Positions 40,288-57,905 of a DNA stretch of 64,000 bases are shown one piece after another. A program made the translations under genes and the position numbers. Each line of letters begins with the position of its first letter. Position 1 is the first letter of the stretch. Origin of the DNA: an uncultured Gemmatimonadales bacterium (lineage in GTDB: Bacteria > Gemmatimonadota > Gemmatimonadetes > Gemmatimonadales > Gemmatimonadaceae). Under the pieces are notes generated by a model. That model was not told the origin of the DNA and made no database searches. It was given only the letters and a program-made list of their open reading frames with translations. The DNA is taken from the NCBI GenBank assembly GCA_963793305.1, contig CAWBZV010000010.1, positions 32,001 through 96,000 on the forward strand, in the 5' to 3' direction.

Positions 40288-40652
40288 GGCTTGGCCTTCC
40301 CATGACTCACGGCCCAGATGTAGGCCGCCACCTGCTGCACTTGGGCGTCGCTGATGCCGCCGGGATGCGACACCATCGCCGTTCCGTCGACGCCCTTCGA
40401 GATGACGCCCACGATCGCATTGAACGCCCCGCCCTTGGCGTCCTTCCACTCGTGCGCGGTGAGCTGAGGACCGATGGCGCCCTCGAGATTCGCGCCGTGA
40501 CAAACCAGACACGTCCCGGCGCCGTGAAAGATCGACCGCCCGGCATCGATCGCGGCTGGCGTTACCTGGGCCGGCACGTCACTGGTCTGCGCCGCGAGAG
40601 GACCGGCGACGAGAGCCAACGCGAACGGAACGCACAACGTGAGTGACCGCAT
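40284..40652 (-). CDS. periplasmic monoheme cytochrome c
   Basis: Signal peptide, CLVCH, GPQL, distal Met (TAM); GTGA overlap with cyc2. Confidence 0.92.
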   Translation of the reverse strand: MRSLTLCVPFALALVAGPLAAQTSDVPAQVTPAAIDAGRSIFHGAGTCLVCHGANLEGAIGPQLTAHEWKDAKGGAFNAIVGVISKGVDGTAMVSHPGGISDAQVQQVAAYIWAVSHGKAKP

Positions 40653-40726
40653 AAAATCCTCAGATCAGAGTCGTCGACAGAATACGATTGGGCGAGTGGA
40701 ACGTGGTCGGTCAATCCCTTCGCTGG

Positions 40727-40745
40727 CGTCAGGGATTCCCTTACG
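40727..40745. promoter_or_regulatory. 19-bp regulon palindrome, site 4
   Basis: CGTCAGGGATTCCCTTACG upstream of cytochrome c-cyc2. Confidence 0.65.
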
Positions 40746-42329: not shown

Positions 42330-42775
42330 AGGCCATTCGCCATGATGCAGAACCCCGTCACCGCGAACCACACCATCGCGAGTCCGACGAACCCGGTGAA
42401 CGCCAACCACCAGGCGCTGTACACCATCGACAGCACCGAGGCAATCGAGATATTGATGCCGACGGCGAGATAGATACGACGCTCGAGATACCAGCGGTCG
42501 GTTTGCATCAGGTACCATTTCGACCCCGGCGCGGTCATCCCCAGCATTGGCGTGAAGCCCAGTCGCTTGAGGATGTTGCCGACGACGCAGAAGCCGGTCA
42601 GCGCGACCGTCACCGAGGCCGCTCCGGTCGCGATGATCAAGAAGGCCCACGTCGGATTGACGAGCGCCGACAGCGTCGTCGCCGTGAGCAGAACGATGCC
42701 GGCGATCAACCAGACCGTCCGCTCGATGTACCACCGGTTGGTGGGAACAATGTAGACGCCGGAACGGAACCTCAT
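42254..42775 (-). CDS. tandem DUF2892 (YgaP-like) membrane protein
   Basis: Two repeats WY(I/L)ER...TGFC..N.L..LG; last gene of the hydrogenase operon (ATGA overlap). Confidence 0.82.
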   Translation of the reverse strand: MRFRSGVYIVPTNRWYIERTVWLIAGIVLLTATTLSALVNPTWAFLIIATGAASVTVALTGFCVVGNILKRLGFTPMLGMTAPGSKWYLMQTDRWYLERRIYLAVGINISIASVLSMVYSAWWLAFTGFVGLAMVWFAVTGFCIMANGLYWLGAEPRLAPAPDLRMRPASDSD

Positions 42776-43245
42776 GAAATGTCATGCCCCCATGCGATGA
42801 GTTGATGAACGACGGAGCGTATGAGACTCGGCAGACCGTCCTGTACGGCCGGGGAGAGACCAAGACCGACCGCCAGCCGGTCCGGCTGGAGCCCAAGCGC
42901 CCGCATCTCGGCCGGCCGGGTCCCTGTGAGATCGGCGAGCGCCAGCACATCACGCAGATCGATCTCGTGCGGCGACAACCGCATCGCGAAATGGCGCGGC
43001 AGATCATCACCGGCCAGTGTGATCGGATCACCGACGGGACGATTCGCGTCGATCGCGTCGACGAACAACACTCGCTTCGCCCCTTCGATCAGTGGCAACA
43101 ATCCAAGGCCGGCAGTGCCGCCGTCGACCAGTGACACGTCGGCCGGAAACGACCACTCCGCGCTCAACCGCGCGATCACCGCCGGTCCGAGCCCGTCATC
43201 ACCCATGAGCGGGTTCCCCAATCCCAGCACGAGCGTGTCACTCAT
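42772..43245 (-). CDS. hydrogenase maturation endopeptidase (HyaD/HybD family)
   Basis: LGLGNPLMGDDGLG, DGGT, VDAID, SPHE. Confidence 0.93.
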   Translation of the reverse strand: MSDTLVLGLGNPLMGDDGLGPAVIARLSAEWSFPADVSLVDGGTAGLGLLPLIEGAKRVLFVDAIDANRPVGDPITLAGDDLPRHFAMRLSPHEIDLRDVLALADLTGTRPAEMRALGLQPDRLAVGLGLSPAVQDGLPSLIRSVVHQLIAWGHDIS

Positions 43246-43990
43246 CGACATACTCTTCCGAGGTCGACACGAACCGGCCGCCGCTGACAATGGACGTGAT
43301 CGTGCCCGAGCGCTCCATGATGTCGGATCGCGTCGCCAGATAGATGTGGATCGGGATGAAGAGGATGAAGAACCAGGTGAGCACGTGATGGACAACCCGC
43401 ACCATCTGGATGCCACCCAAGAGCGGAATTACCCAGGCGAAGGTCCGGAAGATCAGGCTTCCCGGCGCCGCCTGTCCGTACAGCGTGAATCCCGTGACGA
43501 TCATGACCAAGCCGACGACGTACACCAATGTGTAGGAGAACTGCTGCATCGGATTGTGGCCGAGGTAGTGCGGCCCTCGCTCCGGATGAATCATCAGGTA
43601 GTACTTGGTCATCCGAAAGAGATTGACCCAATCGCGCCCGCGCACCGGGAACAACGCCGCCAACCGCTCGAACTGGTTGCCGGCGAATAACCAATAGGCG
43701 CGTACGATCGCCGTCGCCACCAGCACACCGGCGGCGATGAAGTGGGCGAGGCGCACACCGCCCATGAGAAAGTGCGCGCTGGCTGGCCCGCTCGTCATGA
43801 AATACGGCCGGCCGATGTAGAACCCGGTGACGATCAGCACCACGATGCTGGCCGCCGCGCTCCAGTGCATGGCGCGAATCGGCCAGTGCCAGAGATAGAC
43901 CCACCGGTACTCGCCAGTTGGCGGCGGTATCGGGTGGGCGAGCGAGAAGTGCGCCTTGGCTCGCGTGCTCTTCTCCACGGGCGGAGTCAT
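43238..43990 (-). CDS. [NiFe]-hydrogenase cytochrome b subunit (HyaC type)
   Basis: WHWPIRAMHW, TGFYIG, RLAHF, GHNPMQQ, HH...HIY. Confidence 0.93.
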   Translation of the reverse strand: MTPPVEKSTRAKAHFSLAHPIPPPTGEYRWVYLWHWPIRAMHWSAAASIVVLIVTGFYIGRPYFMTSGPASAHFLMGGVRLAHFIAAGVLVATAIVRAYWLFAGNQFERLAALFPVRGRDWVNLFRMTKYYLMIHPERGPHYLGHNPMQQFSYTLVYVVGLVMIVTGFTLYGQAAPGSLIFRTFAWVIPLLGGIQMVRVVHHVLTWFFILFIPIHIYLATRSDIMERSGTITSIVSGGRFVSTSEEYVDE

Positions 43991-45702
43991 TGGACCGTTA
44001 CCCGCGTGATCAGCTCGCCCGTCGCGTCGAGCACATGGACCCCGCATGCCATGCACGGATCGAACGAGTGGATCGTGCGCAGGATCTCGAGCGGCTGATC
44101 GGGTTTCTGTAACGGATGATGATCGACGAGCGCCGCCTCGTACGGCCCCAACTGCCCTTGCGCATCCCGTGGGGAGCAATTCCAGGTGCTCGGCACCACG
44201 CACTGGTATCGCGAGATCTTGCCATCCTCGATCCGCACCCAGTGCCCGAGCGCGCCGCGCGGCGCGTCGAGATACCCGTACCCCTGTGACGTCTTGCTCC
44301 ACGTCGACGGCTCCCACTTCGCGCCGGCGAACGTCTGGTGATCGCCATTGGCGATCCGGCTCACGAGCGCCGCATACCAGACGCGCAACCGCCGGGCCAG
44401 GAGCAGCGTCTCCATCCCTCGCGCCGCGGTCCGGCCGAGCGTCGAGAACAGTGCCGGTGCACCGACTCCGAGTTTGCCAAGCGTCTCGTCGACCAGCGGC
44501 TTGACGTCGGCGTGGTTCGACGCGTAGGCCACGAGCATGCGGGCCAACGGCCCGACCTCCATCGCCTTGCCGTTGTACCGCGGCGCCTTCATCCACGTGT
44601 ACTTCTGCTCGTCCTGCAAGTAGCGCCAGGGCGGCTTCGGCCCCGTATAGTGCGGCGTCGTCTCGCCATCGTAGGGATGGAGCCCTTTCTCATTCCCGCC
44701 CGAGTAATCGTACCACGCGCTATGGATGTACTCGGCGATCCCGTGATGATCGTACGGCTCGACCTTGCTCAGGTCAGCGCCCATGATGATGCCGCGCGGG
44801 AAATAGAGCGTGTTGAGATCGCGCACGTCGCCATCGGGAAACTCACCCACGGCCATATAGTTGCGCGTCCCGCCGCCGATCGAGGCCCACTCTTTATAGA
44901 AGCCGGCAATCGCCACCAGATCGGGCCAGTAGACCTGCTCGACGAACCGCTGCGCGCGGTCGATCATGTCGCTGATCTCGATGAGCCGGGCCGCGTTGAT
45001 CATCCCCGCGCCATCCGGGTTGATCGCGGAGGCCATGCCGCCGACGAGAAAGTTCGGATGCGGGTTCTTGCCACCAAAGATCGTGTGCAAGCGAACGACG
45101 TCGCGCTGCCAATCGAGGGCCTCCAAATAGTGCGCGAGCGCGAGGAGGTTGACCTCCGGCGGGAGCTTGTACGCCGGGTGTCCCCAGTACCCATTGCTGA
45201 AGATCCCGAGCTGGCCGCCGGAGACGAACTTCTTGATCCGCGCCTGCACCTCGCCGAAATACGTCGGCGAATTATTGGGCCACGGGGAGATCGACGCCGC
45301 GATCTTCGCCGTTCCGGCCGGATTGGCCGATAGCGCGCTCACGACATCGACCCAATCCAACGCGTGCAAGTGATAGAAATGCATCACGTGATCGTGCACG
45401 AACTGCATGCCGACGACGAGATTCCGAATCAGGTTCGCGGCCGGCGGGATGCGGATGTCGAGCGCCTCCTCCACGGCGCGGCACGACGCGACCGCGTGCA
45501 CCACGGTGCAGACCCCGCAGATGCGCTGCGCGAACGCCCACGCGTCCCGCGGATCGCGCCCCTGGATCACGGTCTCGATGCCGCGAAACTGCGTCGACGA
45601 GGCCCATGCGTTGCTGATGCGCCCGTCCTCCGTCTGCACTTCGATGCGGAGGTGACCTTCGATCCGCGTCAGCGGGTCGACAACGACTTTAGTGACTGGC
45701 AT
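43987..45702 (-). CDS. group 1 [NiFe]-hydrogenase large subunit
   Basis: RIEGH, L1 QRICGVCTVVH, L2 HSFDPCMACGVH plus a cleavable tail. Confidence 0.97.
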   Translation of the reverse strand: MPVTKVVVDPLTRIEGHLRIEVQTEDGRISNAWASSTQFRGIETVIQGRDPRDAWAFAQRICGVCTVVHAVASCRAVEEALDIRIPPAANLIRNLVVGMQFVHDHVMHFYHLHALDWVDVVSALSANPAGTAKIAASISPWPNNSPTYFGEVQARIKKFVSGGQLGIFSNGYWGHPAYKLPPEVNLLALAHYLEALDWQRDVVRLHTIFGGKNPHPNFLVGGMASAINPDGAGMINAARLIEISDMIDRAQRFVEQVYWPDLVAIAGFYKEWASIGGGTRNYMAVGEFPDGDVRDLNTLYFPRGIIMGADLSKVEPYDHHGIAEYIHSAWYDYSGGNEKGLHPYDGETTPHYTGPKPPWRYLQDEQKYTWMKAPRYNGKAMEVGPLARMLVAYASNHADVKPLVDETLGKLGVGAPALFSTLGRTAARGMETLLLARRLRVWYAALVSRIANGDHQTFAGAKWEPSTWSKTSQGYGYLDAPRGALGHWVRIEDGKISRYQCVVPSTWNCSPRDAQGQLGPYEAALVDHHPLQKPDQPLEILRTIHSFDPCMACGVHVLDATGELITRVTVQ

Positions 45703-46819
45703 CGGGTTTTGTCTCCTCCGTCGCGCGCCGGCGCGTCTGAATCTGGTGAATGCCAGTCGCGGCGGCGTGCGCCGCGATGCCCGCGACCACGCCGATCGCG
45801 GCGGCGGCGCCGAACAGATCGGCCGTGCGCTCGACGCCGAACCCGGCGACGTTCGGCAAGCGGCCGTAGAACGGCGTCATCGTGTCCCAGAAATGCGGTT
45901 CGGTGCAACCGAGACAGGGATAGCCAGCGCCGATCGGCCAGCTGGTCCGCTCATTCCAGAGAAACGTCGGACACGGCGAGAACGTCGCCGGGCCCTTGCA
46001 GCCCACCTTGTACAAGCACCACCCCGCCTTCGCCGCGTCGTCATCAAATTGCTCCACAAACTGGCCCGCGTCGTAGTGCGCGCGACGTGGGCACGCGTCG
46101 TGGATCAACTCCCGGTACGCGAACAGTGGACGCCCCTCGCTGTCAGTATCCGGCAGCTTCCCAAATGTCAGGTAGTGCACGAGCGTCGCCGTCACGACAT
46201 CGCTGATCGGCGGGCAGCCGGCGATGTTCACGACCTGCCGATCCTTCAGGATATCACGAACGCCGACGGCGCCAGTCGGATTCGGGCGCGCGGCCTGTAC
46301 ACTGCCCCAGTGGGCGCACGCGCCAACAGCCACGATCGCCGCTGCGCCGGCCGCTGCCTCGACGAGGATATCCTGCACCGTGCGTCCCGCGATCGTCGTG
46401 TAGATCCCACCGTCTTTCGTCGGAATGGATCCGGTCACCAGCAGCACGTACTGACCGTGATTCGCTTGCATCGCGCTGTGCAACGCGCTCTCGGCCGCCT
46501 CGCCGGCGGCCGCCATCAGGTTCTCCTGAAAGTCGAGCGAGATGAGCCCGAGTATGAGGTCGCCGATCGTCGGGTCGGACGACCGCAGAACAGACTCGGT
46601 GCAGCCGGTGCATTCCTGCAACGACAGCCAGACGACGCTCGGCCGGCGCTGTGCTTCGAGCGCGGCGGCGACGCGCGGCAAGACCGTGGCGCCGAGCCCG
46701 AGCATCGCGGCCATCTGGCCGCAAAACTCGACAAACTCGCGGCGCGTGTAGCCCCGGCGCTCGAGATGGCCGCTGAGCGTCTCGCCCTCGACCCATGGTT
46801 CACGCGACGGATAGAGCAC
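45689..46819 (-). CDS. group 1 [NiFe]-hydrogenase small subunit (Tat, C-terminal TM)
   Basis: TRREF Tat motif; QECTGCTES, GACAHWG, GCPP, HDAC, CLYKVGCKGP, PCLGC; TM tail. Confidence 0.96.
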   Translation of the reverse strand: MLYPSREPWVEGETLSGHLERRGYTRREFVEFCGQMAAMLGLGATVLPRVAAALEAQRRPSVVWLSLQECTGCTESVLRSSDPTIGDLILGLISLDFQENLMAAAGEAAESALHSAMQANHGQYVLLVTGSIPTKDGGIYTTIAGRTVQDILVEAAAGAAAIVAVGACAHWGSVQAARPNPTGAVGVRDILKDRQVVNIAGCPPISDVVTATLVHYLTFGKLPDTDSEGRPLFAYRELIHDACPRRAHYDAGQFVEQFDDDAAKAGWCLYKVGCKGPATFSPCPTFLWNERTSWPIGAGYPCLGCTEPHFWDTMTPFYGRLPNVAGFGVERTADLFGAAAAIGVVAGIAAHAAATGIHQIQTRRRATEETKPDASH

Positions 46820-46877
46820 GGTCTACCTCCGGAGGCAGGGGCTTGACGCCCGCTCGCGCGGCGTCATAGCGTGGGGG

Positions 46878-47306
46878 ATGACGAGAGACGTGAGAATTCG
46901 CTCGCTTGGTGAGACGGTCGCGATCGCCGCGGTCATCGTGCTGCTCATGACCCTGGTATTCATCGAGCTCCGACGGCCGAGCCCAGCCGAGACGGCGCCC
47001 GCCGCCACCACCGCCGCTCCGGCGCAACGCGCGACCCCGGCGCTGCCGCCAACGACGCGCGCCGCGCTGGACGCCGGCAACACCGAGTTCCGCGCCAAGC
47101 AGTACGCCGCGGCACTCGGCCACTATCGTCTGGCCGCCCTCAGCTCGCCCGGCGAGGCAGCCCCCTTCTACGGGATCTACATGGCCGCACAGGCGCTCAA
47201 CAACAGACCGCTCGCGGACAGCGCGGTGGCCGAGATCCGCGGCCGCACGGGTGGCACGGGGCCGTTCAACGATACCTCGCTCAGGGCGCTGCACGGCACG
47301 CGCTAG
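46878..47306 (+). CDS. membrane-anchored TPR-like protein
   Basis: N-terminal TM; GNTEFRAKQYAAALGHYRLA...PFYGIYMA. Confidence 0.65.
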   Translation: MTRDVRIRSLGETVAIAAVIVLLMTLVFIELRRPSPAETAPAATTAAPAQRATPALPPTTRAALDAGNTEFRAKQYAAALGHYRLAALSSPGEAAPFYGIYMAAQALNNRPLADSAVAEIRGRTGGTGPFNDTSLRALHGTR

Positions 47307-47308
47307 CA

Positions 47309-48715
47309 TTAGGGAGCCACTCCGAACGGATCGCTGATGTGGCAGACGAGGCAGATGGAACGATTGCGTTCCCACATCCGGCGGGCGTCGAAGTTCGGGC
47401 CGTGCGGATTCACATGGCCGCCGATGTCCGAGTGGCACGCAACGCAATCGCGCTCCTGATGACAGCTCGTGCACGTCGCCAGATCGCGGCGCGCCGCCTG
47501 GCCATGCTGCAACAGCCAGAGCGGCTCCGCCGTGTGAAACGCGATGTTGCGATTGGCGCGCGAGGCGATCCCGACGTTCATGTGACACGTCCGGCAGAAC
47601 GACTCGGTGTTGTGACACTTAGCGCAGTCGATCTGCCGCGCGTACGAGTCCGCGGCATGATGGGCCATGAAGTTCGCCGGATGGAAGCCCCGGGTCGTGC
47701 GGCCGGCGTGGCACGAGACGCAGAAGACCTGTTGCTCGTGGCACCCGGCGCAGTTCATCTGACGGGTCGACGCCGCAGGCCCGTGTGACGTGACGAATCC
47801 CGACGGATGCACGCGCGAGACATACATGACACCCACGCCGGCCGGACCCGCACCGGTCGGCGCCGGCAGTCGCGCGATGACCGCCGGCGCTTCCCGGCCG
47901 GCGTGACACGACGCGCAACTCGGCCGCGTATGACAGTTCGCGCACTGGGCGATATTCGTGCGCGCGGCACTCCCGTGATCGTACGGCCACGACGCGGCCG
48001 TGTGACTCGGTGGCCGCGGGTACTCGGCGGGGCGGCCAGCCATAAGCCGCGCGACACGAGTATCCCGCGCCAGCGTCGCGATCGCCGGCACCGCGGCGCC
48101 ATTGAAATGGCATCGCTCGCAGCTCTCGCGCGCGTGGCACGTGGCGCACTGCGCCTGCTCGGCCGGCGACGTCGGCGCGTGCGCGAGGACAAAATCGTCC
48201 GCGCGGTGCGAGGCCGGCTTGTCGAACGCCGCGATCTGCCGCTCGGTGAGCGCGCTTGCTTCCGTCAATGGGACGTGACACGTCGCGCAAACGGCCTGCG
48301 GCGCCAGATGCTCGGCAACGCGATGCGCATGGCAATCGATGCACAGCGCCGGCTGCGCGCGCGCGACGTCCATCCACACGACCTGCCCGCGCTGCGCCGT
48401 GTGACACGACATGCAATCCAGCGAGTCGCCGGTACCACTGGTACGGCGGTAATGCTCCGCGTGGTCGAAGATCACATTCGTCGCGACGCGGCGAGGCCCG
48501 CTCCACGGCACCTCCTTGAGCTCGCGCCCAGTATGGCACCCTTGGCAGGACGCCGCTGTCGGGAAAAGCCTGGCACTGTCGCCGGACGCGATGCCGGCGT
48601 GACAGCCGAGGCAGGTTGGAAAGACCTTGGCGTGGCGGGCGTGCGGAAAGCCCTGGTCGTCCTGACGGAGCCCCCACGTCAACGCCAGCACGATGGCGGC
48701 GATCGTCCAGCGCAT
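47309..48715 (-). CDS. secreted 16-heme cytochrome c
   Basis: Signal peptide MRWTIAAIVLALTWG; 16 CxxCH counted. Confidence 0.92.
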   Translation of the reverse strand: MRWTIAAIVLALTWGLRQDDQGFPHARHAKVFPTCLGCHAGIASGDSARLFPTAASCQGCHTGRELKEVPWSGPRRVATNVIFDHAEHYRRTSGTGDSLDCMSCHTAQRGQVVWMDVARAQPALCIDCHAHRVAEHLAPQAVCATCHVPLTEASALTERQIAAFDKPASHRADDFVLAHAPTSPAEQAQCATCHARESCERCHFNGAAVPAIATLARDTRVARLMAGRPAEYPRPPSHTAASWPYDHGSAARTNIAQCANCHTRPSCASCHAGREAPAVIARLPAPTGAGPAGVGVMYVSRVHPSGFVTSHGPAASTRQMNCAGCHEQQVFCVSCHAGRTTRGFHPANFMAHHAADSYARQIDCAKCHNTESFCRTCHMNVGIASRANRNIAFHTAEPLWLLQHGQAARRDLATCTSCHQERDCVACHSDIGGHVNPHGPNFDARRMWERNRSICLVCHISDPFGVAP

Positions 48716-50154
48716 CACCGCAACCCCGGATCGCGGCCCAACGTCCACTCAAGCCGAAACGACGCCCGCGTCTGATTCCAGTTGGTGATCTGCGGCGTCT
48801 CGCCGCCAACGTAGCGATAGATCCCCACGTCGGCGATCGCGCTCAACCCGGCGAGGATCTCGACGCTGCCCGCGAGTCCCACACCGAGCACCTGCCCCGT
48901 GCCGACCTGAAACTCATACAGGGTCTCGGAGGCGCTGCCGGTGAGGTCGATCGATGTATGCGCCGTCGGCGTCCAGCGCAGGCCTCCGCTGGCATCGTCC
49001 AGTGTCGCGCCCGAGCCGTACAGGAGGCGATACTCACCGTGCACGGTCCATTTCGGGATGAACCGCCACGAGCCGGTCGCGTCGACGTCCCAGCCGCTAT
49101 TGACGAGTGGCAGAAAATTGACCCCGGCGTTTGCCTGATCGTACCGTCGCGCTCCGCCGCTGAGGCTGAACGCAAAGCGCTGATCGGTGCTGCCCCACGC
49201 CGCACCCAGTCGCTCCTCGGTGTAACCCACGGGAGCAAACACGCCCCAGATCGTCCACAGGTCGAAGTACGGCGAGTAGCGCCGCACCTCGGCATCGACG
49301 TGGAACCCCAGTCCGAGCGGCGCCTGCGCCCGAATGTGCGCGTCGTTGAACGTGCCGGTCGCGAGGTCATACTGCAGGCCGCCGCTCAGATCCAGGCGCG
49401 CGAACCGAACGTCGCCATCGGCCGCGAACCGGTCAGAGTAGAGACCGGCGGCGTCGGTGCGAAGCTCGCGCTGATACTGCACGTCGAACGACGCTTGCGG
49501 GACGGGCCGGATCTCGAGCTGTGCGCCGAGCAGATACGACCCCTCGTTCGGCGCCAGCGGCTCGATCGTCGTGACGGCCGAGCTGGTCACCGTGGCGTTG
49601 AGCCCCGGAACGAGGCTTCGACCGCCGTACACGTTGACCGACAACTGATCGATCGGCCGGACCAGGACCGATCCGCCGTCATAGTTATAGTAGCCCAACC
49701 CCGACTGGATCCACGCTCGTCCGGCCTGGACCCGAAAACGGTCACTATCGTATTCCAAGTAGCCGCTCAACACCTCGAACGAGTTGGCCTGAGGGAAGAT
49801 TTCCGACGCGCTGCCACCGGCCGTGCTGCCTCGGACGCTCACGTACGCGGAGAGGCCTGGCACGAGCCCCCACGCGCTCACATCGAGGGCCTGATAGGCC
49901 GGAATCGTGCTGACCCGCGGCGCCGAGCGCACGTACTGGCAGTACGCGTCGCCGCTAATGCACTCGACGATGATGCCGTTGGCCGTGCGACGCAGGAGAC
50001 CACTGTCCTGGGTCGCGGCGATCGGCACGCTGTCCTGAACCATCGGCTGAACGTCGACATACTCGACGACCGACGTGCCGGAGATCCGCACTCCCTGCGC
50101 GCCGAGCGGTCCAGCGCTCAATAGCATCGCCAGCGCGATGCCCCGCCCCGTCAT
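48715..50154 (-). CDS. outer-membrane beta-barrel protein (porin of a porin-cytochrome cluster)
   Basis: Signal peptide; many amphipathic Tyr/Trp-rich strands; no CxxCH; stop/start overlaps with both flanking cytochromes. Confidence 0.8.
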   Translation of the reverse strand: MTGRGIALAMLLSAGPLGAQGVRISGTSVVEYVDVQPMVQDSVPIAATQDSGLLRRTANGIIVECISGDAYCQYVRSAPRVSTIPAYQALDVSAWGLVPGLSAYVSVRGSTAGGSASEIFPQANSFEVLSGYLEYDSDRFRVQAGRAWIQSGLGYYNYDGGSVLVRPIDQLSVNVYGGRSLVPGLNATVTSSAVTTIEPLAPNEGSYLLGAQLEIRPVPQASFDVQYQRELRTDAAGLYSDRFAADGDVRFARLDLSGGLQYDLATGTFNDAHIRAQAPLGLGFHVDAEVRRYSPYFDLWTIWGVFAPVGYTEERLGAAWGSTDQRFAFSLSGGARRYDQANAGVNFLPLVNSGWDVDATGSWRFIPKWTVHGEYRLLYGSGATLDDASGGLRWTPTAHTSIDLTGSASETLYEFQVGTGQVLGVGLAGSVEILAGLSAIADVGIYRYVGGETPQITNWNQTRASFRLEWTLGRDPGLR

Positions 50155-51956
50155 GACCCCGTTCCGTGCTGCCACTCGACTTGATGACAGCCGGCACATT
50201 CACGTCCGGGATGGTGGTCGACGAGCGTCTGGTGACACACCAAGCAGACATTGCGCACCGGTGGGAGCGCGGCCGAGGCCGCATCCTGGTGGCAACCGCT
50301 GGTCGCGCAGCCGCGATGGGCGCTGCGCGTATGCGCGGTCTTCTCTGGCGCATGGCACCCGCGGCAGTTGACGGGGTGGATGTTGGGCCCTGCCACATGG
50401 TGGTCGACGTGGCATGACTCGCAGTCGCGAGACGGCTCGAGCGTCACGGGTGTGTCGTGACACCGCGCGCAGGCAACCGACGTGTGCGCCGAGTGAGCGA
50501 ACGTGAGGTTGCGTGCGTGAGGGGTCGGGTTCACCGACGAGCGGAAGACCGTCGGCACAATGGCACGCGCCGATATCTCGGCTGGCACATGGCAGCCGGT
50601 ACAGGCGGTCGTGTGGTCGGCCGCATGATGGCAGGATTGGCAATCGCGGACGCTGTGCAGCGCGATCTCGCCGTGCCGGTGCTCGCTCGAGTGACAACTC
50701 GTGCAGGCCACGTTTGGGTGACGCTGGTGCGAGAACGGCGGCAGCGAATCGGCTGCAGGGAGAAACGCGGCCGGTCTAAACACTGGCGGAGCACGGGCAG
50801 CGGCTCGCGTCTCATCGCCATGACTCATGATGTCGCGATGGCACGTGAGGCACGCATTGGCGCTCACGGTCCAGGTGTGCGCCTTGTGGCAGCTCTCGCA
50901 GTTCGCCAGCACTTGGGGCGCCAGCCCTTTGTGCAGCGGCGTCAGCGTATCGGGGCGCACGTGACAGCCCGCGTTGGTACACGTGGTGGCCGCCGCCTGC
51001 GGCGTAGTCTGCGTATGCGGGTTGTGACACCAGCCGCACTGTCCCCGGTGCGGGTCGCGCGCTGGATCGAAGTTGGCCAGCACTTTCTGCATCGCATGAC
51101 ACCCGAAGCACTCGTTGCCGCCGGGCACCAGGGCGCGGTGAGCGGAGTCGGGCGACACATGGAGGCCGACGCGCCGGGTGAAGGCGTGGCACGTCACGCA
51201 GTGCATTTGCGTCTGCATCGCCATCTTGCCGAGATGGATCTCGGTGTGCTCATGACAACCAGACTGACCACACGTCTGCTGGATCGGGAGAAAGCGGTGC
51301 AGCTCGACACCGTGGCAGGTCGTGCATTGCATATTGCGCAGCGACCCCGTGTCGTTCTCCAGATGAACGCGATGCCCCGCGGTCGCCAGGATCTGCTTCC
51401 AGATGCTGTCCGGACGATCTTGGTTGTGGCAGCGGAGGCACGCGCGGTTCGGCACCTTCGCGTGCGGCGGAATCGACTGGGGGCGCTCGGCGATCTGATA
51501 ATAGACCTGCTTGACGTCCGCGATGATGCCCTGCTGATGGCAGTCGTGGCACTCGAGCTGCTTGTGCTCGCTGCCTTGGAAGCGGCTGTACGCCGGGACC
51601 ATGACGTGACAGGCGACGCAGAAATCGTTGCTGTGTTGCGTGTAATTCCAGCTCGCGGCGCTAAACATCGCTGCGCCGACGAGGCAGAGGCCCGCCGCTG
51701 CGGCGAGGCCGATCAGGACTGGACGTGAGCGTGAGCGAAGCCACGCGATGATCGCGGTCCGGTGCCGCCAGAGGAGCCAGGCGATCCCCGCCGCGGCGAG
51801 GACGCCCACCACGAACACCGTGATCTGCACCCACGACGGGAGATTGAACGCGAACCGAAAGAGTGCCGCGACGCCGCCGGGCAACGGCGAGCGCACGACC
51901 ACCGAGTCCAGCGCAACGGTATCGCCCGGTAGCCGTTGCGGGAGCAACCCGCTCAC
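50151..51956 (-). CDS. membrane-anchored NapC/NirT-type multiheme cytochrome, extended (17 CxxCH + 3 CxxxxCH)
   Basis: Two N-terminal TMs, NDFCVACHVM (CxxCHxM), SEH..LECHDCH, ACLRCH, CTTCH, then 16 more motifs. Confidence 0.9.
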   Translation of the reverse strand: MSGLLPQRLPGDTVALDSVVVRSPLPGGVAALFRFAFNLPSWVQITVFVVGVLAAAGIAWLLWRHRTAIIAWLRSRSRPVLIGLAAAAGLCLVGAAMFSAASWNYTQHSNDFCVACHVMVPAYSRFQGSEHKQLECHDCHQQGIIADVKQVYYQIAERPQSIPPHAKVPNRACLRCHNQDRPDSIWKQILATAGHRVHLENDTGSLRNMQCTTCHGVELHRFLPIQQTCGQSGCHEHTEIHLGKMAMQTQMHCVTCHAFTRRVGLHVSPDSAHRALVPGGNECFGCHAMQKVLANFDPARDPHRGQCGWCHNPHTQTTPQAAATTCTNAGCHVRPDTLTPLHKGLAPQVLANCESCHKAHTWTVSANACLTCHRDIMSHGDETRAAARAPPVFRPAAFLPAADSLPPFSHQRHPNVACTSCHSSEHRHGEIALHSVRDCQSCHHAADHTTACTGCHVPAEISARAIVPTVFRSSVNPTPHARNLTFAHSAHTSVACARCHDTPVTLEPSRDCESCHVDHHVAGPNIHPVNCRGCHAPEKTAHTRSAHRGCATSGCHQDAASAALPPVRNVCLVCHQTLVDHHPGRECAGCHQVEWQHGTGS

Positions 51957-51958
51957 GT

Positions 51959-53423
51959 TCAGTGCGGCAGCCTAACGCCCGACGGGTGCTTCAGCTTGAG
52001 CTCGAGCGAGACCCTCTGCGTCGACGGCACACCGTACGTGTTCGTCATCGCCGAGATACTGCCCGTGAGCAACGCCTCCATCAAGAACGGGTTGTGAATC
52101 GGCGATCCCGGTAGCTCCGCAAGCTGCGGCGTTGAACAACGATCCCGCCGCCACCGTGTACGTGGCATTCGTCGATGCCGTCTCGGCCGGCGTCGCGCCA
52201 AGTACGGTCGCGAGTTGCGTTCGGAGCACCGTGTCCAGTTGCAGAATCCGTCCCACGCCTGTCAGATACGCCGACACCGCGACCGCCTGCGTCCCGTGGC
52301 ATCCGCTGGCCGTGCACCCAGCAAAGCTACGCGCTGCCGTCGTGACCGCGCAGTTCGTGGTGCCTGCTGGTAGCCCTTGCGCATTGATGCAGGGGATGGC
52401 GTTGAAGCTATGGCCCGTCGTGTGGTACACGAATTTGCCGGACGTATCGCTAATCGTGAGGCTATCGACATGGCACGTCGCGCACAGCCTGGGGTTGGCC
52501 GACGAGCCGTGGGTGCTGATAATTGTGTCGATTCCCCCAGGGATCTGGAGATTCGGCGGGAACCAGCCGGCCGTGCCGAGCAGGAGCGGGCCTTCGGGCG
52601 AATGCGGACCGTACTTCTTGGTGTCCGCATTGAGCACGCTACCGTTCTGGTGGCACTTCATGCACAGGTTGACCGACACGTCAGCGACGTTGATGGGGAA
52701 CCGGAGCTGGCCCGCATTGGCGTTGCTGTGCGGGTCGTGGCACACAGCGCACGTGATCGGGAGCGTGTCGCCGTTGGCGAAGCCCGCTTCTTTATAGTTC
52801 GTGTTCACGCCCCAGGCGACCAGCGCCCCTTGCCCCGTGTGGCAGCCCTGACACTGCGCGTTCGCCTCCGGGTGCGCCTCTTGCCAAGCCGGGACAGTGG
52901 CGTGACGCGAGGTCACCCACTCGTTGACAAACGGTTCGTGAACGCCGGTGTGACACGCGCCGCAGCCAGTCGTGCTGCTGGTGTCTGCGCGTAACGACGC
53001 GAGCGGATGATTCGTGATCGACGGACTCGTGACGTGCGTCAGTCCGGGGCCATGGCAGTTCTCACACTGGACGTCCTGGTAGCGCGGGTCCTTGGTAGCG
53101 ACGTAACCGACCTGCGCTGAGCTGGCCCCGTTGCCGTTCTGGCCGACGCTATGGCACTGCTGACAATTGGCGGGGTTTTCGCCCGTGGCGGTCAGGTCCT
53201 TCCAGGCATGCGCGTGCGCGGTCTGGATCCACGGCGTCTGGTGGTCGACGTGGCAGTCTCCGCAAACCGTCATCTGCGTGGAGACCGTGGCGTAGCCGAG
53301 GAAGCCGCCAGCATTGGAAGGCGGGGCGGCGAAGTTCGTGCTGCGGTAGACGATGTGATCGTGCACACAACCCAGCGCACTGGCGCTGGCGAGAACCGTC
53401 GCGAACCAGACTGACCGCCTCAT
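51959..53423 (-). CDS. multiheme cytochrome c lipoprotein (8 CxxCH + 1 CxxxxCH), apparent +1 frameshift near 52128
   Basis: Lipobox ALG-C; c554-like W..TAHA, VQCENCHGPG, ITCAVCHDPH; corrected tail FNAQLAELPGSPIHNPF ends at 51959. Confidence 0.9.
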
Positions 53424-53478
53424 CTTCGCGCTCTTGGCGAGAGTGCGTTCTAATAAATATCCTATCCTGCCGCGCGTC

Positions 53479-53497
53479 AGCCGGGGATTCCCTGACA
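53479..53497. promoter_or_regulatory. 19-bp regulon palindrome, site 6
   Basis: AGCCGGGGATTCCCTGACA upstream of the multiheme operon. Confidence 0.65.
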
Positions 53498-53557
53498 GAT
53501 CATCGATTGGTCGTGCGATATGGTAACGAGTTGTGTGCCTATTCCCGTGAACTGGAG

Positions 53558-54347
53558 ATGGCATCGATGACGACAGGCGCGACTCCGGCAGCGTTGACGA
53601 TCACGTGCGCGACCTGCGGCACCGAGTCGACCGGCGCGCGGTTCTGCCCCTCCTGCGGGGCGCCGCTCCAGGGCGCGCGATGCGGCGGGTGCGACTCGAC
53701 GCTGCTGACCGGCGCCCGTTACTGCCACCGATGCGGCACGGCAGCCGGCGCCGCGGGGCCCTCGCGCCTGCGCGTCGCGCCAGCGACGCCTTGGGTCGTC
53801 GCGGCCGTCGCGCTGTTGGCGCTCGTCGTCTTGATCGTGAGCAGACGGTCGACGCCCGCAGCCGTCGACGTCGCCGCGGCCGACCCACCCGCGGCCCCCG
53901 CGGCCGGCGCGCTGGATATCAGCGCAATGTCCCCAGCGGAGCGGGCGGACCGGTTGTTCGACCGGGTGATGCGACTGCACGAGGAGGGGAAGGACGACAG
54001 CGTGCAGTTCTTCCGACCGATGGTGCTCTCGGCGTACCAGATGATCGGGCCGCTCGACCTGGATCAGCACTACGACCTCGGTGAGATCGGAGAGACGCTC
54101 GGCATGATGAATCTGGCGACCGCCGAAGCCGACACGATTCTCCGCGCCGAGCCCAAGCATTCTGCTCGGGCTCGCGCTCGCCGCGCGGGTCGCGGCCGAG
54201 ACGCAGCATGCCGCTGCCGCCCGCGGCTACTACCGCCGGCTGCTGGCTGCGGCGCCGACCGAGCGCCAGCGTCCGCTCCCGGAGTACACGCGGCACGACA
54301 GGGACATCACGACCGCGCTCGCCGCCGCGGCGGCGCTGGGGCGTTGA
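53558..54347 (+). CDS. double zinc-ribbon + TM + TPR-like protein, apparent +1 frameshift near 54161
   Basis: CATCG..FCPSCG..CGGC..YCHRCG, TM; corrected EPKHLLGLALAARVA...YYRRLLAA ends TGA at 54347. Confidence 0.8.
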
Positions 54348-54364
54348 GGGGTAATGTCCGACCG

Positions 54365-54499
54365 GTCGAGCAGGCGGCGTGGAGCGTCAACGGCGTCCGC
54401 GCGATTGCCGAGCGGCTGCGCGTGCGCCGGACGTCCGACACCGGCCCATCCGATACGGCGCTCGCGCTCGCGGTGCTGAAAGCGCTCGAGCATGAGCCT
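54365..54499 (+). pseudogene. BON-domain gene fragment
   Basis: VEQAAWSVNGVRAIAERLRV...SDTALALAVLKALE resembles VERVKGVRAVASELEV...EDESLARAAAVAIE of the gene at 60869-61564. Confidence 0.5.
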
Positions 54500-54614
54500 G
54501 CGGCCGCCGGATGCCGTCCGCGCGGACATCCCGGTCGGCCGGGCCTTCGAGATGTCGCTGACCAGACACGCCCAGGCGTGATGTGCGAAACCGCGCCGCT
54601 GTTGCCAGCGGAGC

Positions 54615-54947
54615 TCACTTCGAGGAGAGTCCACGGACGTACTTCGCGAGGGTTGCCATCTGACTCGACGTGAGCTTGCCTTTGAACGGTGGCATGTCTC
54701 CGCCCTTTCCTCCCGTGAGCACTTTCACGATCGAGTCGTCCGTGCGCACCGCGATGAACGCGGAGTCGAACGTCGGGATCTTGTTGAGCGCCGACTTGAC
54801 GTTCTTCGGCGGGAGCCCGCGGACGCCGTGACATTGCATGCAGTTCTGGTCGTACAAAGCTTTGGCATCGTCCTGCAGACCGTGCACACGAACTGATGCA
54901 AGCGATGCCAGCAGCGTGAGGGAAAAACCTACGACCCGGATGATCAT
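54615..54947 (-). CDS. monoheme cytochrome c
   Basis: Signal peptide, LYDQNCMQCHG, GDMPPF. Confidence 0.9.
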   Translation of the reverse strand: MIIRVVGFSLTLLASLASVRVHGLQDDAKALYDQNCMQCHGVRGLPPKNVKSALNKIPTFDSAFIAVRTDDSIVKVLTGGKGGDMPPFKGKLTSSQMATLAKYVRGLSSK

Positions 54948-56446
54948 CGCGTGCTCGTGGTTGTGCGTGGCTCGGGAAACGTATCGCGGAACTCCGGCGG
55001 CTGCGTCGCCCCGTGCGGGCCCCGCAACGACGACAGGTACTGGGCGAGCTCTTCGATTTCCTGATGGCTCAGCGTCGGCGGTCCGAACGCTGGCATCTTC
55101 GAGTCGCGATGAAAGCGCGTCGGCTCTTCGATGAAACTGTGCAACCAGGCGGTTGAATGCAACAAGCCGATGCTCCCGAGCTCCGGCGCGTTCGGGGCAG
55201 CGGCGGATTGCTGCACCGGCGGTCCGTTGATCTGATGACAGCCGCCGCATTGTTGCTGCGCGAACAAGGTGCGACCGGCGCGCTCGACGTACGTCAATGG
55301 CCGCCCGACCTCGGGCACGATCCTCGGTGAAGGCGCATCATGGGCCGACGCGCCGAAGAGCATCGCCACCACCGCCGCCGTCACGCCAAGCGAAAGGAGC
55401 GCCAGCGGCCGACGACGGAGCGAACGGGCACTCCCCCGGTCGAAGAACGGAAGGAGGAGGAGCCCCAACGCGACGAGACCCGGGACACCCACGGCGATGA
55501 CGCTCTCGAGCGCGCCGGGGACGAGCTTCAGCAGTTGAAAGAACGGCAGGAAATACCATTCGGGCCGCGGCACGTAGACCGCATCAGTCGGGTCGGCGGG
55601 GGATTCGAGTCCGGCGCCTTGCACGCTCGCGAGCAACACGAGCAACGCGACGACTCCAGTCGCGACAACGATATCCTTCGCGATGATGTCGGGCCAGAAC
55701 GGAACGCCTTTGGCCTTCGACTCCGCACTCGTCTCGCGATAGAACTGGGCATAGGCGCCGTCGCCGGTGCTCGCCGGTGCATCACGCTCCAGTACCGCGG
55801 GTGGCGATGCGATGCCTTGCCGAACAACGAGCGCGAGGTGCAGCAATACGACCACCCCGATCGCGAGCGGCAGGACGAGCACGTGCAACGAATAGAAGCG
55901 CGTGAGCGTGGCGGCGCCGAGCTGCCCCCCTCCGCGCAGCAGCTCGACCAGAACGCCCCCGACGATCGGCGTCGTGCCGGCGATATTGGTGCCCACTTGC
56001 GTCGCCCAATATGCCTTCTGGTCCCAAGGCAACAGGTACCCGGTGAACCCGAACCCCAGCACGACGAAGAGCAGGACGACGCCAAGAAGCCAGTTGAGCT
56101 CGCGGGGATACTTGTACGCGCCCATCGTGAAGACGCGAACCATGTGGGCGCAGACGAGTACGACCATCGCCGAGGCACCCCAATGGTGAACCCCGCGCAG
56201 CAGCGCTCCGCTGGCAACCGTTTGGTCGATGTAGCGAATGCTGTCGTACGCGTGGTCCGGCGACGGCGCATAGTACATGGCGAGGACGATGCCCGTCACG
56301 ACCTGCACGGCAAGCACCGTCAGCGTCGCGCTGCCGAGGGTGTGCGACCACGTGAGCCCGGACGGCATCTTGCGGTCGAGCAGTGTTCGGCGCAACTCGG
56401 CGACGTCTACGCGCACATCGAGCCAACGGGCTATGGCGGCGAACAA
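54944..56446 (-). CDS. cytochrome b (b6 + subunit IV) fused to a C-terminal cytochrome c
   Basis: TGIVLAMYY, RGVHHWGAS, HMVRVF, GYLLPWDQ, RFYSLH, RPEWY, CGGCH...KMP. Confidence 0.93.
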   Translation of the reverse strand: MFAAIARWLDVRVDVAELRRTLLDRKMPSGLTWSHTLGSATLTVLAVQVVTGIVLAMYYAPSPDHAYDSIRYIDQTVASGALLRGVHHWGASAMVVLVCAHMVRVFTMGAYKYPRELNWLLGVVLLFVVLGFGFTGYLLPWDQKAYWATQVGTNIAGTTPIVGGVLVELLRGGGQLGAATLTRFYSLHVLVLPLAIGVVVLLHLALVVRQGIASPPAVLERDAPASTGDGAYAQFYRETSAESKAKGVPFWPDIIAKDIVVATGVVALLVLLASVQGAGLESPADPTDAVYVPRPEWYFLPFFQLLKLVPGALESVIAVGVPGLVALGLLLLPFFDRGSARSLRRRPLALLSLGVTAAVVAMLFGASAHDAPSPRIVPEVGRPLTYVERAGRTLFAQQQCGGCHQINGPPVQQSAAAPNAPELGSIGLLHSTAWLHSFIEEPTRFHRDSKMPAFGPPTLSHQEIEELAQYLSSLRGPHGATQPPEFRDTFPEPRTTTSTR

Positions 56447-56965
56447 CTACGCCTCGACCTGATTCGCGATACCAAGGCGGAAATCCTTGTAGTTGACCCA
56501 GACCGCGCCGTCACGTACTTCCGCCTTCAACTCGTCGAGCGACCGCGGCGGTGGGCCCGCCAGCACTCGGCCCGTCGTGATATCGAACTGTCCGTGATGA
56601 CACGGGCAGACGAAGTTCTTCGTGCCCTGATCGTACCCGAACGCGCAGCCCAGGTGCGTGCAGTGGGCATTATAGGCCTTGAACGTCTTGCCGTTCTTCG
56701 TGTAGAGCCAGACGCTATTCAGTTGCCGATCCTCCACCCACGCGTCGACCCTGCTTTCGACGAAGCTGACGCGCAGTGGAATATCCGTGTCGATCAGAGC
56801 AACGTCGTCGGCGACCTTCACCCAGCGATCGGGCCTCGCCGAAGACAGTGACGGTGAGAGGAACGCTCGGAGCACCGGAAAGCCGACGAGCGCGGCGCCC
56901 AGTGTCGCTCCGATACCGCTGACCCACTGCAGGAAGCGCCGCCGACCCACCCGTGAGTCACTCAC
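56447..56965 (-). CDS. Rieske [2Fe-2S] subunit of a bc-type complex
   Basis: GRRRFL Tat anchor; CTHLGC and CPCHHGQF; GPPPRSL. Confidence 0.95.
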   Translation of the reverse strand: MSDSRVGRRRFLQWVSGIGATLGAALVGFPVLRAFLSPSLSSARPDRWVKVADDVALIDTDIPLRVSFVESRVDAWVEDRQLNSVWLYTKNGKTFKAYNAHCTHLGCAFGYDQGTKNFVCPCHHGQFDITTGRVLAGPPPRSLDELKAEVRDGAVWVNYKDFRLGIANQVEA

Positions 56966-56976
56966 CGCCTTGCGCC

Positions 56977-57819
56977 TCAGTTCACGGTGATAGTTTGGAT
57001 CATCCCTTCCATGAAGTGCGGCTTCCCGTTCTTGATGTCCGGGATGAGGCACAAGAGCGCGTAGTTGCCCGGCTCGAAGGTCGCGGTAAACGATTGCACG
57101 ATGCCGGTGGCCGCGGCCGCAGTACCACCCATGGCGTGCCCTGGCGCCGGGCCCTGCATGGTGCGAGCCCAGTCGATGTAGTCCTGCCCCGTCTTGCCGG
57201 CGTCGAGCTGCACGACGAGCACCTCATGGGGCTGCCCCGGCGCGGTCACGACCTCGAAGGTGTGTGTGCCAGCCGTGATCGGCTTGGCGAGGGCGAACAC
57301 GAAGTCGCTCAGTGTGATGGCGTTGTCGGTGACCGGCGCGATGGCAACCGGCCCCCCGGGCGTTGCCGGCGACGCCGCGGTCACGGTCAGCGCGCGGTAC
57401 ATGCCTTTCATATAATGCGGCACGCCATTGGGCACGTCGAGAATGCAGATGATCGCGTAGTTGCCAGCCGCAATGTCGAGCGTCGCGGCCGATTCCTTTC
57501 CCGGATCGGGCACATTGGGGCCGCCGACATACGTTGCCCACGCCGGCAAGGCGTACTGTTTCTTGATCGCGACCAAGAGATCGGCGACCGTCTTGCCGCT
57601 GTCGAGGCGAACGAGCAGGGCGTGATGCAACCCTGGTCCGCGGTTGACGAGATGGAACGTCGTGACGCCGGCGGCAATCTGCGCTGGCGCAACGAATGCG
57701 AAGTCGCTGGCCTCTATCATCACGGACGCCGGTCCGGGTGGTGAGGCGGGAGGCGTCTGCTTTGATTCACAGGCTGTCACGAGCAGACCGAGTGCGAGAG
57801 CGGAACGGTAGGTGCGCAT
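56977..57819 (-). CDS. lipoprotein with two cupredoxin-like (type-1 Cu) repeats
   Basis: Lipobox VTA-C; H...GNYAIIC..PHYMKGM and H...GNYALLC..PHFMEGM. Confidence 0.75.
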   Translation of the reverse strand: MRTYRSALALGLLVTACESKQTPPASPPGPASVMIEASDFAFVAPAQIAAGVTTFHLVNRGPGLHHALLVRLDSGKTVADLLVAIKKQYALPAWATYVGGPNVPDPGKESAATLDIAAGNYAIICILDVPNGVPHYMKGMYRALTVTAASPATPGGPVAIAPVTDNAITLSDFVFALAKPITAGTHTFEVVTAPGQPHEVLVVQLDAGKTGQDYIDWARTMQGPAPGHAMGGTAAAATGIVQSFTATFEPGNYALLCLIPDIKNGKPHFMEGMIQTITVN

Positions 57820-57905
57820 GCGACCCCGCCAGCGGAAGAGGGAACGCTACGACTGCGCCATCATATCGCCGTCGATATGGTCCGGGAATAGGAGAATATT
57901 CGACG

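Follow-up and report, generated by a model that had tools for sequence, protein, structure and literature searches.

A candidate porin-cytochrome conduit in a soil-type Gemmatimonadota genome, outside the Mtr family by sequence

Which route could electrons take between the quinol pool and the surface of a diderm cell that appears to have no Mtr system? The question is raised by a cassette of four genes at positions 47309-53423 of the window, which is the whole 64,000-nucleotide stretch of DNA analysed here (G000:C10:32001-96000). It belongs to a 5.7-Mb genome of a soil-type Gemmatimonadota, assembled in 26 contigs and 92% complete. Four tightly linked open reading frames (ORFs), all on the minus strand, fill the interval in the order A, B, C, D. 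A (51959..53423) encodes a nonaheme lipoprotein cytochrome resembling OcwA and OmhA, B (50151..51956) a 601-aa cytochrome with 20 hemes and an NrfH/NapC-like start, C (48715..50154) a 479-aa outer-membrane beta-barrel of a family without a name, and D (47309..48715) a 468-aa cytochrome with 16 hemes and a signal peptide. Motif counts underlie the three cytochrome assignments, joined by the lipobox, a match to Protein Data Bank (PDB) entry 6i5b and the fold of an orthologue for A, by profile and PDB matches for B, and by PF14522 and complex prediction for D. C was recognised from its AlphaFold2 (AF2) fold and structural matches. The three cytochromes together carry 45 heme motifs (9, 20, and 16) and are joined by a single outer-membrane barrel.

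On balance, we consider it probable that the cassette is a trans-envelope porin-cytochrome conduit that passes electrons from quinol to the surface and belongs to a family not related by sequence to Mtr. A first-pass annotation of this DNA had proposed such a quinol-to-surface wire, and the proposal is supported. It had named three outcomes that would speak against the wire: a 48715-50154 product that does not fold as an outer-membrane barrel, no cytochrome that fits the lumen of that barrel, and a lipoprotein that serves as an inner-membrane catalytic reductase. These were looked for in silico, and none of them appeared. The gene order, the strand, and the motif counts that it listed (9, 20, and 16) were reproduced by ORF analysis.

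The barrel is the least familiar of the four products. C contains no heme motif, and scans of Pfam and NCBIfam assign it to no family at E<=0.01. Its signal peptide ends between ...LGA and QG. The AF2 model is a large outer-membrane barrel with a predicted local distance difference test score (pLDDT) of 82.8 and a predicted template modelling score (pTM) of 0.75, in agreement with the fold claimed earlier for this product. Strand parity in the DSSP string, counted by hand, gives about 22 strands, and the first loop is long (36-80) with two conserved Cys residues. The best structural matches are outer-membrane barrels of 18 to 24 strands with Z up to 19, including 22-strand TonB-dependent transporter barrels, ushers, and Occ porins (SusC, Cir, BtuB, FimD, Occ) at Z 16-19. 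MtrB (6r2q_B) aligns over 355 residues with Z 15.7 and 4.9 Å root-mean-square deviation (rmsd). Foldseek against the PDB returned generic outer-membrane barrels only. In the genomes of one family (f3; G038, G040, G042, G044, G046, G048, G050, G052, G056, G058, and G060), the barrel match falls into two pieces (profile about 5-46 and 78-485), so that the long initial loop, which bears the two conserved Cys, would be altered or absent there.

Cytochrome D appears to supply the wire for this barrel. All 16 of its CxxCH motifs and 16 further His residues are invariant or nearly so in 46 sequences, a pattern consistent with 16 bis-His hemes and a spacing of one heme per 28 residues or so. The protein is composed of c7/c3-like modules (PF14522, E 3.2e-13), its N-terminus is weakly similar to PpcA, and it has no match to the DmsE/MtrA model TIGR03508. 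For complex prediction, C residues 19-479 and D residues 17-468 were each given their own 46-row alignment from the same loci. The median ipSAE was 0.84 over three runs (0.82, 0.84, 0.89), and the best of three controls reached 0.00. The runs share at least 86% of contacts, and partner pLDDT is at least 77. About 400 contacts are formed, and on the side of D they involve the C-terminal half (residues 241-458). On C they fall at alternate strand residues (23, 25, 27, 29; 87, 89, 91, 93, 95; 102-110; and further ones), the pattern expected of lumen-facing side chains. The most confident pairs link the invariant C loop motif PYF.LWTIWGAFSPVG (295-310) to D 409-424; C 37-38 with D 381-382 and C 238 with D 450-451 are also confident.

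The C-terminal half of D (about 241-458) is thus predicted to lie inside the lumen of C. Because the contacted parts of C are long loops, which usually point outward, the C-terminal end of D would sit at the extracellular mouth and its c7-like N-terminal half, with eight hemes, in the periplasm. A fit between a cytochrome and the lumen, which the first-pass annotation had suggested checking by complex prediction, is therefore what the models return. The same source had called D a secreted 16-heme cytochrome. The 16 motifs and the signal peptide stand, but D is most likely a wire threaded through the barrel and not secreted freely.

The lipoprotein cytochrome A carries eight CxxCH motifs and one Cx4CH motif. 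A signal peptide followed by a lipobox Cys is present in 14 of 14 orthologues, and this residue, C19, is invariant across 51 aligned sequences. Among solved structures, OcwA (PDB 6i5b) is its sole sequence relative at E<=0.1, with three collinear stretches at E 1.6e-6. The fold of A was judged on an intact orthologue, L028, which is 61% identical to A (model pLDDT 74.5). In VIA-align, this model matches OcwA with Z 17.7 (rmsd 3.5 Å, 333 residues aligned, 25% identity) and the S-layer undecaheme OmhA (6qvm) with Z 16.7. NrfA-type nitrite reductases reach Z 13-14, HAO and MccA Z 8-9, and MtrA Z 4.6. Foldseek at E<=0.001 gave three matches, namely OmhA (6qvm_A) and two OcwA chains of 6i5b (E 2.6e-6 to 8.3e-6). 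The model also ends in a helical bundle as in OcwA (helices 385-416, 430-442, and 451-469). In Thermincola potens, OcwA is the terminal reductase of the cell surface, a nonaheme protein that combines a tetraheme part like c554, a pentaheme part like NrfA, and a helical bundle (PMC6703420). Both OcwA and OmhA are cell-surface reductases with Fe(III) minerals among their substrates (PMC6703420, PMC7829351).

Across 51 sequences, nine conserved extra His/Met positions of A are available for its nine hemes, and five of them are invariant. Candidate ligands include H162 (44/51), H174 (45/51), and position 274, which is His in 36 and Met in 15 of the 51; an invariant His also lies in the C-terminal helix. 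The CxxCK motif is absent from a motif count over A, and a listing of all His positions in the A of this window contains no adjacent His pair, unlike the pairs that lie over the five-coordinate hemes of OcwA. Pfam detects no MtrC/MtrF domain in A. On the DmsE/MtrA model TIGR03508 it scores 30.3 bits against a cut-off of 192.2, and on the GSU2203 decaheme family 27.1 bits against 325. Homology and modelled fold indicate that A is an OcwA/OmhA-type nonaheme lipoprotein, a member of the wider NrfA/c554 superfamily. Its closest relatives are surface reductases rather than an inner-membrane catalytic enzyme. A would lie at the outer face. Bearing on this location are its lipobox and a GspD-type secretin encoded in the genome, above the cut-off of its model; the latter is compatible with surface export of a lipoprotein but no proof of it.

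Cytochrome B provides the putative inner-membrane end of the conduit. Its 17 CxxCH and three Cx4CH motifs are all invariant in 34 sequences, and about 21 further His residues are conserved across the same set. Two hydrophobic segments resembling transmembrane (TM) helices lie at 35-65 and 77-102, and the second is directly followed by ...FC..CH.M. The NrfH profile TIGR03153 (138 positions) matches residues 90-215 with its positions 8-133 (E 1.6e-7), at 31.5 bits and thus below the cut-off of 134.2. The score on PF03264 (20 bits) is likewise below its cut-off of 24.1, and the PDB NrfH chain 2j7a_C matches with E 9.8e-5. The first heme motif reads CxxCHxM in 10 of 11 orthologues, and M119 is at least 90% conserved in 34 sequences. 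B also scores under the cut-offs of DmsE/MtrA (TIGR03508; 18 bits against 192.2) and of PF22113, used as a test for the MtrC/OmcA family (20.6 bits against 30). An NrfH/NapC-like tetraheme module at about 90-215 is accordingly followed by a further heme wire, in which the last 200 or so residues form a separately conserved domain. By homology, the head of B appears to be a quinol dehydrogenase module of the NrfH/NapC type anchored in the inner membrane. The NapC/NirT-like inner-membrane cytochrome with 20 motifs described in the first-pass annotation agrees with the NrfH profile, the 2j7a_C match, and the CxxCHxM motif.

The Mtr family was examined across the entire genome. MtrB_PioB (PF11854) has no match at E<=0.001 anywhere in this 92% complete assembly, and the sole match of the DmsE/MtrA model, with 28.8 bits against a cut-off of 192.2, lies inside A. 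Because neither of these defining families is recovered, the cassette falls on sequence grounds outside the Mtr family, and the label "non-Mtr" given to it earlier is upheld.

The gene junctions fit a compact unit. B and C overlap by ATGA and C and D by TGATG, and both overlaps had been correctly annotated. The A/B junction depends on the frame in which A is read. As assembled, the ORF of A spans 51972-53423 (483 aa), and 15 nt separate its stop from the GTG start of B at 51956. The frame of A switches at about 52126/52127, and the last 55 or so codons are unlike those of relatives. The C-terminal sequence of the relatives (...HNPFL.EALL...) is found in another frame, whose stop at 51959 leaves a gap of 2 nt. 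The 2-nt gap reported earlier thus holds for the frame used by relatives but not for the assembly. The extra base is most likely an assembly insertion error, because the contigs of three public runs that cover 52126/52127 have one base fewer: X1 (depth 11.4), X2 (5.99), and X5 (2.1). X1 is possibly the source sample and so possibly not independent, and run X3 has no coverage of the site. Other single-base indels of the same kind may exist in this genome. When 46700-54000 was searched for promoters and terminators, the minus strand yielded no site, and no terminator was detected.

A wider survey separates the constant from the variable parts of the cassette. The C profile retrieved 830 cluster representatives at E<=0.001 and 233 at E<=1e-30, with 554 confirmed loci in species genomes; the locus surveys concern the best 80 of these 554. 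By title, 77 of the 80 come from Gemmatimonadota lineages and three from an "uncultured bacterium", and all 30 matches in a protein atlas search are Gemmatimonadota clusters without a common Pfam family. The barrel occurs in 29 of 61 near relatives, the present genome included, and in 131 of 301 genomes and 68 of 128 genera of a phylum sample. The order A(9)-B(20)-C-D(16 or 18) is found in 10 of 12 relatives' loci, spanning three families; one of the other two reads A-A-C-D, and the second reads A-C-D and lies beside other cytochromes. D directly follows C in 65 of the 66 loci with at least 1.9 kb of downstream DNA, and in the 66th it is split in two. The 65 copies of D have 16 hemes in 60 cases, 18 in four, and 14 in one. 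Such recurrence of gene order and of C-D adjacency exceeds chance by far.

Upstream of C, an A-like ORF is present in 57 of 63 loci with at least 4.2 kb of upstream DNA. The arrangements in these 63 loci are A9-B20 in 23 (and five near variants), A9-B10 in 13 (and three with 8-9 hemes), A9-A9 in seven (and one fragmented), B20 alone in four, A9 alone in four, and neither in two. From these upstream and downstream counts, C-D emerges as the invariant core, A as nearly constant, and the inner-membrane link as exchangeable. The earlier phrase "whole envelope in four genes" consequently describes A-B-C-D in this genome but not the family in general, in which B is an optional module. The 8- to 10-heme forms of "B" (20 ORFs) match only about residues 362-601 of B and lack the NrfH part. 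Of 16 short forms inspected, 11 have a signal peptide and a lipobox Cys at the start, then a linker rich in Ala/Pro/Ser, and most loci of this type have a 9-heme cytochrome with Rieske and cytochrome b genes after D. A lipoprotein of about 280 aa with 10 hemes and a long Ala/Pro/Ser linker replaces B in L069, L070, L072, L076, L082, L084-L086, L092, L094, L097-L099, and L104, where D precedes a 9-heme cytochrome. At L016 (G049:C7, 22-6712), a cytochrome b-like gene followed by 9-, 22-, 11-, and 4-heme ORFs lies directly upstream of A-C-D; L029 and L055 hold a set resembling these extra cytochromes, placed after D.

Comparison with characterised systems shows both the familiar and the distinctive features of the cassette. 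It resembles Shewanella MtrCAB with CymA (6R2Q) in combining a quinol dehydrogenase (tetraheme, NapC/NirT-type), a heme wire in a large barrel, and a lipoprotein cytochrome, and the predicted insertion of D in C mirrors that of MtrA in MtrB. However, no sequence relationship was detected between MtrCAB and the cassette proteins. MtrB has 649 residues in chain 6r2q_B, whereas C has about 22 strands in 479 aa; MtrA has 10 hemes against 16 in the D wire, and the lipoprotein A appears to have the OcwA fold and not that of MtrC. B fuses its quinol module to 16 further hemes, whereas CymA relies on soluble periplasmic carriers. The Pcc clusters of Geobacter (OmbB-OmaB-OmcB; Ext) similarly place genes for porin-like, periplasmic multiheme, and lipoprotein multiheme proteins side by side (PMC4245776). 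The c7/c3-like modules of D recall Geobacter as well, and the neighbouring cytochrome b (54944-56446) scores 229 bits on the NCBIfam model for ExtP, a selenite/tellurite reduction operon cytochrome b, against a cut-off of 290. Pcc cytochromes have 8 and 12 hemes, in contrast to 16, 9, and 20 here, and are set apart from the cassette by description and not by sequence comparison. Gemmatimonadota are not among the taxa in the abstract of the Pcc survey, and the word is absent from its text (PMC4245776).

OcwA of T. potens (6I5B) and OmhA of Carboxydothermus ferrireducens (6QVM) share with A the fold and a helical bundle at the C-terminus; OcwA in addition resembles it in sequence along collinear stretches and has nine heme motifs. 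Both are monoderm wall or S-layer proteins without a barrel partner, whereas A is a lipoprotein encoded beside a barrel. Moreover, two five-coordinate hemes of OcwA lie under His-His pairs, which A does not have. Gavrilov et al. grouped OcwA in a subclade of nonahemes from Gram-negative bacteria, and the accessible text of that paper does not describe this cassette (PMC7829351). B recalls NrfH in its TM helix followed by four CxxCH motifs, the first being CxxCHxM, and in aligning to nearly the whole NrfH profile. As in NrfHA, a gene of the NrfA superfamily (A) lies directly upstream of an NrfH-like gene (B). In contrast to NrfHA, B stays under the curated cut-offs and carries 16 additional fused hemes, and the catalytic CxxCK is missing from A.

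PCC3 and PCC4 of iron oxidisers are also candidate clusters outside Mtr and Pcc that were recognised from genomics and contain many-heme wires (He et al. 2017, PMC5566968), and PCC4 is associated with bc-type genes (PMC5566968, PMC13264449), as the cassette is here. In the inner membrane, both have a conserved protein of five helices and b-heme type, with two HX13H motifs (PMC5566968), in place of which the cassette has a c-type NrfH fusion; no five-helix protein with two HX13H motifs is among its four genes, which encode three c-type cytochromes and the barrel. PCC3 and PCC4 were reported mostly from Proteobacteria, and the accessible text does not mention Gemmatimonadota (PMC5566968). A metagenome paper of 2026 presents generic porin-cytochrome groups and, in its accessible part, does not name this cassette (PMC13264449).

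The genes around the cassette bear on where its electrons could come from or go. Pfam and NCBIfam matches identify a membrane-bound [NiFe] uptake hydrogenase downstream of the cassette, also on the minus strand (42772..46819). Its small subunit (45689-46819) has a Tat motif and a C-terminal anchor in its sequence, and it is accompanied by the large subunit (43987-45702), a cytochrome b (about 43238-43960; PF01292, Ni_hydr_CYTB, E 2e-28), and a maturation protease (42772 to about 43236). The cytochrome b, whose position after the large subunit is conserved in relatives, is easily missed in ORF lists: the ORF that conceals it (43238-44596) is over-long and runs into the large-subunit gene in a different frame. 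Because it has its own cytochrome b gene, the hydrogenase looks like an ordinary quinone-reducing uptake type. Direct transfer from the hydrogenase to the c3/c7-like D, as in Desulfovibrio, was considered and dropped as the main route, given this Ni_hydr_CYTB gene directly after the large subunit. A hydrogenase is likewise encoded downstream in 14 of 58 loci. Just past the hydrogenase genes of this window, a 341-aa multicopper oxidase and a monoheme cytochrome c (40284-41766, minus strand) could be relevant to metal oxidation.

Upstream of the cassette, further minus-strand genes encode a cytochrome b6-like protein fused to subunit-IV-like and c-type domains (the ExtP-like product at 54944-56446), a Rieske protein (56447-57052), and CcmF (57847-59937), all matched in Pfam and NCBIfam. 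Between the last two lies the gene for a 280-aa lipoprotein (56977-57819, minus strand) with two cupredoxin-like repeats, read from the sequence and assigned to no Pfam or NCBIfam family. Each repeat has a Cys...His..Met pattern resembling that of blue copper proteins; the gene sits just before that of the Rieske protein, and L027 has a counterpart in the same place. Of 58 loci, 18 have Rieske and cytochrome b genes downstream of the cassette; a CcmF gene is in the vicinity in 28 loci.

In the conduit that we favour, the NrfH-like head of B would oxidise quinol, and electrons would run along the 20 hemes of B to its conserved C-terminal domain, which would hand them to the periplasmic half of D. 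Threaded through C, D would carry them across the outer membrane to A, which would be docked on the outside in the way that MtrC sits on MtrAB. As terminal reductase, A would pass them on to an acceptor that is extracellular or bulky, for example metal oxides, humics, or an electrode. The quinol pool would be supplied, among other sources, by the quinone-reducing uptake hydrogenase encoded next to the cassette, so that extracellular reduction could be powered by H2. We infer the contacts of A and B, the orientation of D, the direction of flow, and the substrate.

Although NrfH/NapC/CymA-type modules are best known as quinol dehydrogenases, the same assembly might work inward. Extracellular Fe(II) or Mn(II), reduced minerals, or humics would then be the electron donors, and the recipients would be the Rieske/cytochrome b proteins, cupredoxins, and oxidases, or the quinone pool through a reversed B. 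The recurrent Rieske and cytochrome b genes would suit this direction, as would the cupredoxin-like lipoprotein and the multicopper oxidase with its cytochrome c in the same island. Moreover, bc-type genes are also part of PCC4 clusters of iron oxidisers (PMC5566968, PMC13264449). The closest characterised relatives of A, however, reduce Fe(III) minerals (PMC6703420, PMC7829351), and another recurrent neighbour, the uptake hydrogenase, is an electron donor. We regard inward flow as unlikely, though still to be taken seriously. An arrangement without any trans-membrane wire is less probable again. A and B would form an NrfHA-like periplasmic quinol:substrate reductase for a soluble compound, for instance nitrite, hydroxylamine, or an oxyanion of sulfur or selenium, C would be a substrate porin, and D a periplasmic electron store or carrier. 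A gene order matching that of nrfA beside nrfH and the place of A in the NrfA/c554/OcwA superfamily speak for it, and OcwA itself reduces hydroxylamine and, slowly, nitrite in vitro (PMC6703420). It accounts poorly for the confident prediction of D in the lumen of C, or for C-D adjacency that is near universal while B is dispensable. The lack in A of both CxxCK and an OcwA-like His-His pair over open hemes, together with nine His/Met positions for nine hemes, also argues against such an enzyme, which we consider improbable.

The outward conduit has weaknesses of its own, and several points weigh against it in addition to the redox genes that suit inward flow. Its support is entirely computational, from sequence, fold, synteny, and complex prediction. 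In calibration, 116 of 157 solved complexes attained the ipSAE mark of 0.84, as did 2 of 215 mismatched pairs; for C and D, which were scored on alignments built for this analysis, these counts apply only roughly. A similar complex, MtrAB (6R2Q), has been solved, so the pass of C with D might conceivably stem from likeness despite the lack of detected sequence similarity. All structure models are without hemes, and the outward side of the barrel is assigned from loop lengths alone. MtrB ranks only 21st among the structural matches of C, under TonB-dependent transporter and usher barrels, which indicates no specific likeness. The superfamily of A includes enzymes for soluble substrates, which bears on whether A would lie at the surface or in the periplasm. 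B is missing in many relatives (A-A-C-D in 7/63 and A-C-D in 4/63 loci), and among the five other genomes of its genus the barrel was not found, so that it is patchy within the genus.

Gemmatimonadota are among the commoner phyla of soil and sediment, and few have been cultured. The searched literature contained no description of this cassette, though subscription journals and supplements (e.g., the PCC lists of PMC13264449) could hold one, and extracellular electron transfer was not found there in the described physiology of the phylum. Of the 301 sampled genomes, 131 have the barrel gene. Should the conduit work in the way proposed, electron exchange with minerals of iron or manganese, with humic matter, or with electrodes could be open to a large share of Gemmatimonadota, and H2 could drive part of it. 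The porin-cytochrome problem would then have been solved independently for a fourth or fifth time, and a diderm outer-membrane complex would be tied to OcwA/OmhA, the reductases on the surface of Gram-positive metal reducers. The variants of the cassette, with either an NrfH fusion or a 10-heme lipoprotein accompanied by Rieske/cytochrome b, would offer a module-swap series for studying how envelope-spanning wires are assembled. A bolder proposal is that of a phylum-wide, unrecognised class of hard-wired conduit. In it, the inner-membrane 20-heme B would bridge the periplasm to D in C and then to A, giving a continuous 45-heme path without a diffusible carrier. It would support H2-coupled respiration of minerals or humics in common soil bacteria, and its exchangeable link would show the evolution of wires by module swaps. 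We put this forward tentatively, as possible but doubtful.

Some smaller genes border the cassette. On the plus strand, between D and the hydrogenase, 46878..47306 encodes a small membrane-anchored protein of 142 aa with a weak TPR/LcrH-like signal (TIGR02552, E 0.002), a GC content at third codon positions (GC3) of 0.87, and a TM-like segment at 5-34. BLAST places relatives of it next to the cassette, oriented either way, in 27 of 80 loci, and it is possibly an accessory or assembly factor. Three minus-strand ORFs (43242-43904, 53477-54160, and 54307-54834), with GC3 of 0.43-0.67 and no family, were taken as non-coding. Divergently, and 83 nt from the start of A, the plus-strand interval from 53507 to about 53900 encodes a double zinc-ribbon protein with one membrane helix. 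The remainder of the 388-codon ORF that holds it looks non-coding, and the protein itself is a possible regulator.

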